Source of the DNA: Candidatus Berkelbacteria bacterium
GTDB lineage: Bacteria; Patescibacteriota; UBA1384; 2-12-FULL-50-11
Assembly: GCA_016213365.1 (NCBI GenBank)
Contig: JACRAP010000016.1
Coordinates: 1 to 54,356, forward strand
Length of the DNA: 54,356 nucleotides
Direction: 5' to 3'
A program made the translations under genes and the position numbers. Within the stretch, counting starts at the first letter, position 1. Each line of letters begins with the position of its first letter. Below are positions 41,379 to 44,140 of this stretch, piece by piece. The notes below the pieces were generated by a model, which worked only from the letters and a program-made list of their open reading frames with translations, made no database searches and was not told the DNA's origin.

Positions 41379-41485
41379 CATGAAAGGAGAAATAAGGATC
41401 GAACAGTTCGATATCGAGCGAAGCATTGCTAAGCGAGATATCCCAGCAAAGATTTTGCTGGGATCCTGAACGGGCGCACATGAAA
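41362..41485 (+). repeat. palindromic cassette flanked by a 24-bp direct repeat of the tRNA-Val 3' end
   Basis: GATCCTGAACGGGCGCACATGAAA at 41362 and 41462; internal hairpins TCGAAC/GTTCGA and CCCAGCAAA/TTTGCTGGG. Confidence 0.92.
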
Positions 41486-42052
41486 AACACAACCATAATT
41501 ATCGGTGTAATTATATTAATAATCGGTGGGTTCTTATTGTTCCCTAAAAATAATAGCGAAGGAGAAAAAAGAAATATGTCAGATCCAACAACGTTCGAAA
41601 AAATATCGGCAACTTCAGCGGTAATAAAAACCGAAAAAGGCAACATTGCGATTGAACTTTACCCACAAGACGCACCAAAAACCGTAACCAATTTTGCAAC
41701 GCTCGCAAAAAACGGCTACTACAACACTTTAACTTTTCACCGTGTTGAGGCCGGATTTGTAATTCAGGGCGGCGACCCTAACGGCAACGGAACCGGTGGT
41801 GTATCTGTTTACGGCAACAAATTTGAAGACGAACTCGACCCAAAAACCGAATCCTATAAAAACGGTTACAAAGAAGGCGTAGTTGCGATGGCCAACGCCG
41901 GCCCAAATACTAACGGCAGTCAATTCTTTATAATGCTTGCCGACAATCCGCTTCAAAACGCTTATACGATTTTCGGAAAAGTAATTAGCGGAATAGATGT
42001 TGTAAAAAAGATTGAAGTTGGCGATAAGATATTAACGATCGAAGTTAAATAA
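41480..42052 (+). CDS. membrane-anchored cyclophilin-type peptidyl-prolyl isomerase
   Basis: APKTV.NF, FHRV..GFVIQGGDP and AMANAGPNTNGSQFFI motifs; N-terminal TM after the ATG at 41480. Confidence 0.96.
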   Translation: MKNTTIIIGVIILIIGGFLLFPKNNSEGEKRNMSDPTTFEKISATSAVIKTEKGNIAIELYPQDAPKTVTNFATLAKNGYYNTLTFHRVEAGFVIQGGDPNGNGTGGVSVYGNKFEDELDPKTESYKNGYKEGVVAMANAGPNTNGSQFFIMLADNPLQNAYTIFGKVISGIDVVKKIEVGDKILTIEVK

Positions 42053-42070
42053 TTACTACTAGAAACTACT

Positions 42071-42099
42071 AGAAAAGGAGCAAGTTTTGCTCCTTTTCT
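42071..42099. terminator. bidirectional intrinsic terminator
   Basis: AGAAAAGGAGCAA-GTT-TTGCTCCTTTTCT between convergent genes. Confidence 0.85.
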
Positions 42100-42125: not shown

Positions 42126-42821
42126 TTACTTCTTTTTCACGGCAATTTTGGTAGTTTTTGGTTTTGCCGGCTCAACTTTTGGCGCAACGATTGTTAGCGT
42201 ACCGTTTTCGAGTTTGGCCTCAACTTTTTCTTCCACAATCGGCGAAGCAAAACGGATCGAACGGCTAAATTCGCTGTGTTGCCATTCTCTACGAACGGCG
42301 CTTTTGCCGTCTTTTCGCTCTTCGTGTTTCTTATTTCCAGACACGGTTAAAGTATCTTCGGTCATCTCGATCGTTAAATCTTCGTCGGAGTAACCTGGCA
42401 CTTGAAACTCGATTTCGTACTCTTTCTCATTCTCGTGAATATTCATCGCTCCAACGGTTGTACCAAGCGCTCGCGTCCAATCGCCGCGACCAAAGGTTCG
42501 CTCAACCATATCGTTCATCTCTTCCTGCATTCGATCGATCGCCTGAAACGGGCTCCATGGTGTTAGCTGCATGTTCTGCTCACCTCCTTTCTCGATATTA
42601 TTGTTTTCTAATCGTGTTATTTTAATCCCCTCCACTAATTGCTCGATTGGGCAGTTAAAAAATTCCATCAACGCCAATAATACCGGTGAACTTGGCAGAT
42701 ACTCGCCGCGTTCTAGCGAGATAATCGATTGGCGCGATAAATTCAGGGCTTGTGCCAACTCTTCTTGGCTTAAATCGCTGGCAGTCCGTAATTCGCGCAA
42801 CAGTAATCGAATTTTTGTCAT
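42126..42821 (-). CDS. XRE-family HTH fused to an Hsp20/alpha-crystallin domain
   Basis: N-terminal LSQEELAQALNLSRQSIISLERGEYLPS; C-terminal VPG, LTVSG, FSRSI, A.LENG.LTI.APK and I-x-V tail; single uninterrupted frame. Confidence 0.95.
   Translation of the reverse strand: MTKIRLLLRELRTASDLSQEELAQALNLSRQSIISLERGEYLPSSPVLLALMEFFNCPIEQLVEGIKITRLENNNIEKGGEQNMQLTPWSPFQAIDRMQEEMNDMVERTFGRGDWTRALGTTVGAMNIHENEKEYEIEFQVPGYSDEDLTIEMTEDTLTVSGNKKHEERKDGKSAVRREWQHSEFSRSIRFASPIVEEKVEAKLENGTLTIVAPKVEPAKPKTTKIAVKKK
42580..42590 (-). promoter_or_regulatory. internal Shine-Dalgarno for an Hsp20-only isoform (ATG at 42572)
   Basis: AAAGGAGGTGA, 7 nt upstream of an in-frame ATG (MQLTPWSPF) at the domain boundary. 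Confidence 0.8.
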
Positions 42822-42832
42822 TTTATTCTTTA

Positions 42833-42861
42833 AATGTAAAGCTAACTTTACATAATGTCAA
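42833..42861 (-). promoter_or_regulatory. promoter with overlapping palindromic operator
   Basis: TTGACA-N17-TACATT; perfect inverted repeat ATGTAAAG-CTAA-CTTTACAT at 42834-42853. Confidence 0.8.
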
Positions 42862-42934: not shown

Positions 42935-44140
42935 ATGAAGAAACACTGGATCTGGATTATTATCGGCGTAGTTGTTGCCTTAATAATAACTTTAATAATC
43001 TTAAACCGAAAAAGTGACAGCGTTGAAACACCTAAGGGAACAAACACTACGCAATCACCTTCAACAACAATTTCTAGTGCAGTGCAAGCAGGAAAGCTGT
43101 TATCCAATAATAAATGCACCGGTGAAGGTGCTGGGGTATTAACTCAGCTGCCGATGAAACAAAGCGATTACGCTATGATTTTACCGTATGGGCTAATGGT
43201 AGGGGGACATGTAACGCCGATCGATCACCAGTATTTCTCGCCAACAGTTTTTAACTCACCGCGCGACACTTACCCAGTTTACGCAATGGCAGACTCGGTA
43301 ATTACCGATATTCAGCCCCGCACTAACGATCGTGGTACCGAATACCGTTTTGTTTTTACGATGAGTTGTACTTTTTTCTATTATTACGATTTAGTAACAA
43401 GTCTAGCTCCAGACATTAAAGCTGCTTACGAAAAAAAGAATTTAAACTATAAAGTTAAAGCCGGACAATTAGTTGGTAGAATTGGAGGGCAAACGCTAGA
43501 TTTTGCGGTTTGGGATACCACAAAGCCATTGAAAAATTTTATTAATCCAAGCAGTTACTCGGGCGAGGCGTGGAAAATTTACACCGCCGATCCGCTCGAT
43601 TATTATTCTTCGGAAGTCAAGAAAAATGCGCTTGCAAAATATATTCGAACTATCAAACCAGTTTCCGGCAGAATAGATTACGACATCGACGGCAAAATAA
43701 TCGGTAACTGGTTTATAAAAGATTCGGACGGTTACACCGGTACGGGAGAAAATCAAAACGAGTATTGGGGTGGACATTTAGCGATCGCTCCAGAATATAT
43801 TGATAATTCAGCTACGATAATTTCTTTTGGGAGTTGGAATTCGGGCGACGCTAAGCAATTTGCGGTAAAAAATCCTCTTGATCCAGCCAAAATCGGAGTT
43901 GCAGACGGAATTGTTCGCTACGAAATTTATGGTTATTACTTTGTAAAAAAAGACGGTTCGCGCTGGGATAATATGACGCATACCTTTGATCCGAAACTGA
44001 AAATTAGCAATCAGGAATTTGGTGGGTGTGTTTTATTGCAACTAATAGAGACTCGAAAATTGAAGGTTGAACAATTCCCCAAAAAAAAGTGTACAGAAAA
44101 GTTGGTATTTACAAGCGCTTCAAAGATATACACGAGATAA
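42935..44140 (+). CDS. membrane-anchored protein with a degenerate M23-peptidase-like domain
   Basis: N-terminal TM, Thr/Ser linker; GHVTPIDH, PVYAMAD.VI and VKAGQLVG.IG segments. Confidence 0.6.
   Translation: MKKHWIWIIIGVVVALIITLIILNRKSDSVETPKGTNTTQSPSTTISSAVQAGKLLSNNKCTGEGAGVLTQLPMKQSDYAMILPYGLMVGGHVTPIDHQYFSPTVFNSPRDTYPVYAMADSVITDIQPRTNDRGTEYRFVFTMSCTFFYYYDLVTSLAPDIKAAYEKKNLNYKVKAGQLVGRIGGQTLDFAVWDTTKPLKNFINPSSYSGEAWKIYTADPLDYYSSEVKKNALAKYIRTIKPVSGRIDYDIDGKIIGNWFIKDSDGYTGTGENQNEYWGGHLAIAPEYIDNSATIISFGSWNSGDAKQFAVKNPLDPAKIGVADGIVRYEIYGYYFVKKDGSRWDNMTHTFDPKLKISNQEFGGCVLLQLIETRKLKVEQFPKKKCTEKLVFTSASKIYTR

Follow-up and report, generated by a model that had tools for sequence, protein, structure and literature searches.

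A helix-turn-helix–small heat-shock protein fusion as the probable repressor of a heat-shock regulon in Candidatus Berkelbacteria

The 54,356-nt contig JACRAP010000016.1 (assembly GCA_016213365.1; this whole stretch is hereafter called the window), which belongs to a Candidatus Berkelbacteria genome of 559,927 bp that is 94% complete (labelled G000), carries on its reverse strand a gene in which a single reading frame joins an XRE-type helix-turn-helix (HTH) domain to an sHSP (small heat-shock protein). We suggest that this fusion is probably an operator-binding repressor of a heat-shock regulon of chaperone and protease genes, in a class of bacteria in which HrcA was not found and whose named records are mostly labelled Candidatus Berkelbacteria. 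By computation we established the architecture and conservation of the fusion, its operator and the regulon marked by it, the co-occurrence of operator and fusion, their complementarity with HrcA, and the conservation of an internal translation start. As judged from its sequence, the fusion is a new family of regulator.

The fused regulator, its operator and its regulon

The promoter of the fusion gene contains a perfect palindrome, ATGTAAAG-TTAG-CTTTACAT, with the 18-bp core pattern TGTAAAG-N4-CTTTACA. Exact copies of this core occur six times in the genome, compared with none for a reversed-pattern control, and are located ahead of the fusion itself, groES-groEL, dnaK, the gene for a 207-aa DnaJ, clpP, and the gene for an 828-aa Hsp100 of the ClpB/ClpC type (targets were named by Pfam or N-terminal sequence), while a seventh site, with one mismatch, lies 5' of an ABC-2 transporter. 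Across 14 genomes we collected 47 exact sites. Those of relatives comprise 40 sites from nine genomes of which all exact sites were taken (G001, G005, G007, G009, G010, G013, G014, G015 and G020) and four further genomes, plus the regulator site of G076, and the genes 3' of them were named by BLAST against the proteins of our genome. The 47 sites precede dnaK (13), the fusion (11, and one truncated form), clpP (7), groES (6), clpB (4), an ABC transporter (2), dnaJ (2) and a metallophosphoesterase gene (1); that is, 46 of them lie ahead of chaperone or protease genes, the regulator or the ABC-2 transporter, the distribution expected of the operator of a master repressor. At 38 of the 47, TTGAC stands 2–5 nt 5' of the palindrome in the direction of the gene.

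The fusion gene and its control region comprise the following features, all on the reverse strand of the window:

42856..42861 (-): -35 hexamer TTGACA (promoter scan)
42834..42853 (-): operator ATGTAAAG-TTAG-CTTTACAT, a perfect palindrome
42835..42852 (-): operator core TGTAAAG-N4-CTTTACA, the 18-bp pattern
42833..42838 (-): -10 hexamer TACATT, its first four bases being the end of the palindrome (promoter scan)
42126..42821 (-): long open reading frame (ORF), 231 aa, comprising XRE-HTH, linker, sHSP N-terminal arm, alpha-crystallin domain and C-terminal I-x-V (ORF and Pfam)
42636..42800 (-): HTH_3 (XRE) DNA-binding domain, residues 8–62 (Pfam E-value 3.2e-14, 53.1 bits, cut-off 23)
42573..42635 (-): variable linker, residues 63–83, holding the internal Shine-Dalgarno (SD) sequence (alignment, AlphaFold2)
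42580..42590 (-): internal SD AAAGGAGGTGA, 7 nt ahead of the internal ATG (sequence)
42126..42572 (-): short ORF, a canonical sHSP of 148 aa, with its ATG at 42572..42570 in frame (sequence)
42441..42572 (-): sHSP N-terminal arm, residues 84–127, with P-W-S-P-F and a predicted helix at 91–109 (alignment, AlphaFold2)
42138..42440 (-): alpha-crystallin domain (HSP20), residues 128–228 (Pfam E-value 3.4e-19, 69.3 bits, cut-off 20.8)
42071..42099 (-): terminator-like hairpin of 13 pairs, 3' of the stop codon (sequence scan)

The promoter scan returned TTGACA-17-TACATT with a score of 10/12. The operator occupies the spacer between the two hexamers and overlaps the -10, and the centres of its half-sites are 11 bp, or one helical turn, apart. 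To follow this arrangement among homologues we used 31 loci, namely the window and 30 orthologous loci from named metagenome-assembled genomes (MAGs), out of 36 loci; L017 and L020, where contig ends cut the gene, and the single-domain matches L033–L036 were left out. Although the encoded proteins diverge to about 30% identity, the exact operator core is found 5' of the fusion start codon at 30 of the 31 loci (the exception is L028), with TTGAC 3–4 nt ahead of the palindrome in nearly all, and the -10 hexamer at these 30 loci is TACATT (24), TACAAT (5) or TACACT (1). The 7-base arms of the operator are invariant, in contrast to its four central bases and its flanks.

Both parts of the 231-aa protein score above the Pfam gathering cut-offs, the N-terminal part as an XRE/Cro-C1-type regulator (HTH_3, PF01381) and the C-terminal part as a small heat-shock protein (HSP20, PF00011). 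The flanking elements of sHSPs are present as well, as an N-terminal arm, which 6 of the 31 loci are without, and a C-terminal I-x-V anchor. The anchoring motif of sHSPs is defined as I/V-x-I/V; here it comprises residues 226–228, the last three of the alpha-crystallin domain, of which I226 and V228 are nearly invariant. In an alignment of 60 homologues the HTH shows a stretch, SRQSIISLE, that varies little or not at all (S29, R30, Q31, S32, I34, L36 and E37 are invariant), and this parallels the invariant operator, which favours the fusion as the reader of the palindrome. Invariant or near-invariant residues of the alpha-crystallin domain are F185, R187, F191, G207, L209, P214, K215, I226 and V228, and the linker is unconserved apart from a GGE/D-x-x-M stretch. 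Modelling with AlphaFold2 on an alignment of 60 sequences, drawn from the 120 listed homologues described below, gave two confident domains, a helical bundle at residues 1–65 and a second domain at 122–215, with a predicted local distance difference test score below 50 over residues 71–121, where one helix is predicted. The nearest solved structure of the HTH part is CylR2 (E-value 4.3e-7, residues 9–63), the solved relatives of the C-terminal part are sHSPs, SpHsp16, Hsp21, Hsp16.9 and Hsp16.5 among them, and no single chain in the search of solved structures spans both domains.

Among 5.8 billion proteins, searched with a word index, we obtained 130 matches, 120 of them listed, and both PF01381 and PF00011 are present in 112 of the 120. 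The few homologues that bear a name are labelled Hsp20 family protein and come from MAGs of Patescibacteria, Candidatus Berkelbacteria or Saccharimonadales. Of the eight entries that do not have both domains, P0108 is an HTH piece cut 3', P0100 (179 aa, HSP20 only) starts within the HTH, and six of 147–152 aa start at the internal Met, or two residues earlier in P0103. Matched by eye, P0104 is the C-terminal 148–149 aa of L003, and P0107 is likewise that of P0033; the six short entries look like gene callers picking the internal start rather than separate genes. With HMMER we scanned in full the 1.84 billion representatives of clusters formed at 50% identity and, considering the best 150, obtained about 70 full-length relatives of the fusion, together with stand-alone sHSPs of 146–169 aa whose residue 1 aligns with residue 84 of the fusion, the internal Met. 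Short HTH-only relatives resembling residues 1–83 numbered two candidates only, of 113 aa and 40 aa; the latter was rejected as a split form, since it shares its longest-contig figure (9510) with P0100 and is apparently a local break. G076 encodes a variant regulator (G076:C1, L081:1368-1733 (-)), 121 aa long, that consists of the HTH and the first half of the alpha-crystallin domain; clpB lies directly 3' in an operon with it, the operator is in the promoter of the variant, and the genome has two sites only, at the variant and at dnaK.

A first-pass annotation, made from the letters of the window, had read this frame as an XRE HTH joined to an alpha-crystallin domain and had placed a perfect palindrome between TTGACA and TACATT, overlapping the -10. 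Both observations are borne out by the Pfam domains and the positions given above, and the palindrome, whose conservation in homologues it had proposed to examine, is the exact core found at 30 of the 31 fusion loci. The same annotation had allowed that a stop codon might separate the domains in homologues; no in-frame stop occurs within any full-length genomic match. By contrast, its proposal of a one-gene circuit is too small, because the same operator lies in the promoters of groESL, dnaK, dnaJ, clpP, clpB/C and the ABC-2 transporter.

Several members of the regulon and one sHSP outside it have features of their own. The ABC-2 transporter (ATPase and permease) is a member in three genomes (G000:C6:42713-44319, L105; L065; L088). 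An upstream ORF of 23 codons (G000:C20:18456-18527, L106), the first five residues of which, MGKII, are those of the DnaK start, separates the operator from dnaK. The SD of dnaK falls inside this ORF, whose stop has an 8-nt overlap with the start codon of dnaK (18520); the ORF could serve as a leader peptide or in translational coupling. The genome also encodes a second sHSP at G000:C10:1185-1472 (+) (L041), which stands alone, measures about 125 aa and has an N-terminus that is short and acidic; the promoter region there is of the TTGACT/TACCATAAT type. A paralogue resembling this sHSP is present in nearly all relatives and was never seen 3' of an operator site.

Phyletic pattern and the absence of other regulators

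We examined 300 genomes of the phylum together with our own, of which 17 belong to the same class and 284 to other classes (the latter include the unpublished G173, with an HrcA match, a match to the alpha-crystallin domain only and no site, on which alone no claim hangs). Full-length matches to the fusion are present in 14 of the 17 same-class genomes. None that is full-length and stop-free appears among the 150 matches listed for genomes of other classes, which cover the sHSP part only and beyond which there are 167 further matches; four other-class matches that reach the HTH region (G032, G294, G157 and G045) contain one to four stops at 26–28% identity. The operator is distributed likewise, being present in 14 of 17 genomes of the class vs. 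6 of 284 outside it, whereas HrcA (PF01628) has the opposite pattern, with 0/17 in the class vs. 253/284 in other classes. When 35 genomes of the class were scored for fusion and site, 31 had the fusion, one (G076) had the truncated form and three had neither form; of the 32 genomes that carry either form, 31 had at least one exact site, and none, even at one mismatch, was found in the three without (G018, G019 and G230).

Within our genome, searches for the known heat-shock regulators returned little. HrcA (PF01628) matches neither the fusion protein, which thus falls outside the HrcA family, nor anything else in the genome; CIRCE was not found there, with only two look-alikes at four mismatches; and neither MerR_1, the family of HspR, nor CtsR has a match in it. 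The only Sigma70_r2 match leaves no sigma-32-like factor found in the genome, and with a single sigma factor of this kind regulation must act at vegetative promoters. The only HTH_3 match is the fusion itself. Since no other candidate regulator was found, the fusion is the best candidate reader of the palindrome.

In other classes hsp20 often adjoins hrcA: among the matches listed there are at least 13 such pairs, nine in tandem with hrcA first and four divergent (for example G026:C2:52872-54309, G313:C1:72633-74090, G271:C7:60114-61462 and G059:C5:40754-42016). This neighbourhood makes it plausible that a regulator gene followed by an sHSP gene was the ancestral arrangement. An XRE-HTH would then have taken the position of the regulator in the present class and fused to the sHSP, whose own SD and start codon may survive as the internal start. 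The operator copies in other classes comprise two in G314 (G314:C4:48018-48661, 600 bp apart) and single ones in G286, G131, G225, G110 and G070. Because HTH-only matches of 39–42% identity exist in other classes, a stand-alone XRE regulator of related sequence and the same specificity is possible there.

The two translation starts

The first-pass annotation had described a perfect SD within the linker, 7 nt before an in-frame ATG that would give an sHSP of 148 aa, and an upstream start with no evident SD. All of this was reproduced, the upstream ATG (42821) lying 11 nt 3' of the -10 hexamer. Its view that the long form is scarce is not supported, since the missing SD is explained by an mRNA that would effectively be leaderless or nearly so: at 23 of the 30 loci the long-form ATG lies 6–13 nt past the -10 (6 nt at seven, 7 nt at one, 8 nt at seven and 10–13 nt at eight), with longer leaders at the other seven. 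ClpP, presumably an abundant protein, starts 6 nt past its -10 in our genome, and these bacteria seem to employ leaderless mRNAs for genes that are highly expressed. The clpP ATG lies 6–10 nt past the -10, with no SD, in G000:C18:36875-36903 and in the relatives L061, L070, L077 and L089.

An internal ATG that would yield an sHSP of 140–159 aa is present in 25 of the 31 loci. We defined a core SD as GGAGG, AGGAG or GAGGT 4–16 nt 5' of the ATG, and scored 24 distinct loci, leaving out L005, which is near-identical to L002. The core SD precedes the internal ATG in 18 of the 24, and the other six have G-rich purine runs, compared with a background of 10 among 1347 internal in-frame ATGs of our genome (0.74%). 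Taken by itself in a single genome, the SD has no significance, as GGAGGTGA occurs 15 times vs. about 17 expected, and the argument for the internal start therefore rests on conservation across loci. A core SD is found at only 35 of 326 crude first-ATG starts in the genome, and no 3' end of the 16S rRNA was located in the assembly. At the nucleotide level the SD persists although frame and peptide vary (KGGE, EEVR, RKEAN, NEED and KKEN). The first-pass annotation had expected a linker SD encoding a KGGE-like peptide to be conserved ahead of the Met; the SD and ATG are indeed kept in 25 of the 31 loci, while the peptide is not.

When the 31 proteins are arranged in a maximum-likelihood tree, loci with the internal start fall on both sides of the deepest split, and those without it in three places (L011; L012, L013, L015 and L019; and L031), the starred branches forcing at least three changes. 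Each of these losses also removed the N-terminal arm of the sHSP, and the operator is kept in all six loci without the internal start; G007, the only such genome of which all sites were taken, keeps a regulon of five sites. From this pattern, we consider it most likely that the internal SD and ATG date from the ancestor and are maintained by selection, yet they are dispensable, and the free-sHSP isoform that they would encode is not essential, having been lost three times while the operator stayed. It seems likely that the internal start is used. As a separate matter, a conserved RNA thermometer at the internal SD was considered and none is apparent: in folds of positions -80 to +30 around the internal ATG, computed for 24 loci at 25, 37 and 45°C, the probability that the SD is unpaired differs among loci (0.11 to 0.74) but scarcely shifts with temperature.

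Proposed mechanism, alternatives and known systems

Taken together, we consider it very likely that the fusion protein binds DNA at the operator, and quite likely that it acts there by repression rather than activation. In the model that we propose, the dimeric alpha-crystallin domain would hold two XRE-HTH domains in place for binding TGTAAAG-N4-CTTTACA, and the operator, filling the spacer and overlapping the -10 of sigma-70-type promoters, would when occupied block RNA polymerase; from the position of the site in the 17-bp spacer and over the -10 of near-consensus promoters we infer repression by occlusion. The regulator would thus repress its own gene, groES-groEL, dnaK, dnaJ, clpP, the gene for the ClpB/C-type Hsp100 and that for the ABC-2 transporter. 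Under proteotoxic stress, the sHSP part would be drawn into sHSP–client assemblies, or else its oligomeric state would shift with temperature, operator occupancy would drop and the regulon would be induced, until the chaperones had cleared the clients and the repressor returned. In most lineages, the internal SD and ATG of the same mRNA would also give the free 148-aa sHSP, which may compete for clients and so restore repression. Client titration is the sensing step that we favour, though only tentatively. The combined model is more tentative still: a chaperone domain might act as the covalent sensor of a master repressor, with one leaderless mRNA encoding both the repressor and a free-sHSP competitor or buffer, so that clients detach the repressor from about six promoters and newly made sHSP returns it, in a loop that would have replaced HrcA throughout the class.

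Several observations weigh against this account. An sHSP gene would sit in the heat-shock regulon whichever protein regulates it, while the second, stand-alone sHSP gene of the genome is without the operator. One fusion genome (G275) and one fusion locus (L028) are each without an exact site, and six other-class genomes that lack the fusion carry one or two exact sites. Families f5 (G018 and G230) and f6 (G019) are without both fusion and site, and HrcA was not found in f5 (f6 was unsearched), so that some other regulator exists in the class. Nine of the 47 sites, including both at dnaJ, both at the ABC transporter and some at clpB, have no TTGAC at the fixed offset, and one site precedes the metallophosphoesterase gene. 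The N-terminal arm is the main client-binding region of sHSPs. That the arm and the internal start were lost three times, with the operator kept in all six such loci, indicates that neither the free isoform nor client binding by the arm is required for the regulator to be retained, and it weakens a simple titration model.

Some of these observations would be accommodated if another transcription factor bound the palindrome and the fusion were merely a member of the regulon, its HTH binding something else or nothing. As sHSP genes are typical members of heat-shock regulons, as the contact between protein and operator is one that we infer here, and as exact sites do occur in the six genomes without the fusion, this alternative has some appeal. 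We nevertheless regard it as improbable: the fusion is the sole HTH_3 protein found in the genome; the site accompanies the fusion or its truncated form in 31 of 32 genomes and is found in none of the three without; in G076, where the HTH is left with only half of the alpha-crystallin domain, the promoter of the variant still contains the site; an unvarying recognition stretch is matched by an unvarying operator; and a 7-N4-7 palindrome with half-sites 11 bp apart suits a dimeric HTH. Activation, in which the protein would bind the spacer and aid RNA polymerase like MerR-type factors or ClgR, might help to explain the dnaJ, ABC transporter and clpB sites that have no good -35 at the fixed offset. 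It is very improbable in our view, as most of the promoters are near consensus (TTGACA, a 17-bp spacer, and TACATT or TACAAT) and can do without an activator, the spacer and some of the -10 lie under the site, and activation of the MerR type needs over-long spacers of 19–20 bp.

More weight has to be given to the sensing step. In the main alternative to client titration, the fusion would regulate by sensing temperature directly, heat altering the alpha-crystallin dimer or oligomer and breaking the arrangement of the two HTHs with no need of clients. CtsR and RheA are repressors with intrinsic heat sensing, the oligomer dynamics of sHSPs depend on temperature, and lineages without the N-terminal arm and the free isoform keep the operator, G007 even its five-site regulon. 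However, heat favours dimers in most sHSPs, and dimers would still bind the palindrome, while the retention of the N-terminal arm and the internal start in 25 of 31 loci across deep divergence suggests that client handling matters in most lineages; intrinsic thermosensing therefore appears somewhat unlikely to us. It is also conceivable, if unlikely, that the internal SD and ATG are unused relics of a fusion between adjacent regulator and hsp20 genes and that only the 231-aa protein is made. The hrcA–hsp20 neighbours of other classes (at least 13 pairs, nine of them tandem with hrcA first), the three losses of the element and the lack of enrichment of GGAGGTGA in the genome are what one would expect of relics. 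Against this, the linker is unconserved, yet the SD and ATG span the deepest split, at about 30% protein identity; the SD nucleotides stay although frame and peptide change; the core SD at 18 of 24 loci far exceeds the 0.74% of other internal ATGs; and all three losses took the N-terminal arm as well, as expected if SD, ATG and arm form one functional unit.

Systems that control heat-shock genes negatively, with feedback from chaperones, are of a known kind; what is new in the repressor proposed here is that it bears a chaperone domain and has an internal-start isoform. HrcA represses the groESL and dnaK operons via an inverted repeat, CIRCE, in vegetative promoters, and is tuned by the availability of a chaperone, GroEL. 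The fusion would fill the same regulatory niche, as HrcA is found in 253 of 284 other-class genomes and in none of the 17 of this class, but it belongs to an unrelated protein family, its operator is 7-N4-7 rather than the 9-N9-9 of CIRCE, and it carries the chaperone domain itself, whereas HrcA is tuned by a separate chaperone protein. HspR (with HAIR and DnaK), CtsR and RheA likewise repress chaperone, clp or sHSP genes at vegetative promoters, HspR with chaperone feedback, and RheA controls an sHSP gene and itself; we know of none of the three that bears a chaperone domain. They are of different families from the fusion, and MerR_1 and CtsR have no match in our genome. ClgR, an XRE-family activator of clpP and other proteostasis genes in Actinobacteria, which acts via a palindrome, resembles the fusion in its small XRE-type HTH, its proteostasis targets and its palindromic site, but differs in being an activator without a chaperone domain, and in motif and taxon. 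To our knowledge, heat sensing in bacteria is understood for a few regulators (sigma-32, HrcA, HspR, CtsR and RheA), and chaperone feedback has always been between separate proteins. CylR2 of Enterococcus faecalis (PDB 2xiu, 1utx), the nearest structure of the HTH, is a 66-aa XRE repressor with no alpha-crystallin domain.

The closest functional precedent for an sHSP as a stress sensor is IbpA of Escherichia coli, an sHSP that is reported to regulate its own expression and the heat-shock response besides acting as a chaperone (Miwa and Taguchi, PMC10410725), and on which related papers treat its role as an aggregation sensor (10.1101/2020.04.20.050740; PMC10474464). IbpA is reported to act post-transcriptionally on mRNA (ibpA, ibpB and rpoH) and has no added DNA-binding domain, whereas the fusion has an XRE-HTH and promoter targets. 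In the literature that we covered, which did not extend to subscription journals and supplements, we found no account of an HTH–sHSP regulator, of its motif, or of heat-shock control in these bacteria.

If the proposed repressor acts as suggested, a self-contained proteostasis feedback loop would stand in place of HrcA across a whole class of ultra-small bacteria, and a regulator could be assigned to the heat-shock genes of an uncultivated class of Patescibacteria in which HrcA was not found. With a candidate sensor and a DNA-binding domain in one polypeptide, and about six promoters forming a small and very clean regulon in a genome of 0.56 Mb, two purified proteins and a DNA of 18 bp would suffice to test the idea of chaperone titration. 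The system may further offer a compact stress-responsive promoter–repressor pair for synthetic biology, and it would add a conserved case of two isoforms from one bacterial mRNA, made by leaderless and SD-led initiation.

Two genes flank the fusion in the window, both without the operator and both judged by eye from their translations. The divergent neighbour at 42935-44140 (+) encodes a membrane-anchored protein of 401 aa whose family was not recognised. The neighbour at 41426-42052 (+), convergent with the fusion, encodes a cyclophilin-like protein with an N-terminal membrane helix, and the two genes share the terminator-like hairpin at 42071..42099, which separates the end of this neighbour at 42052 from the fusion gene.

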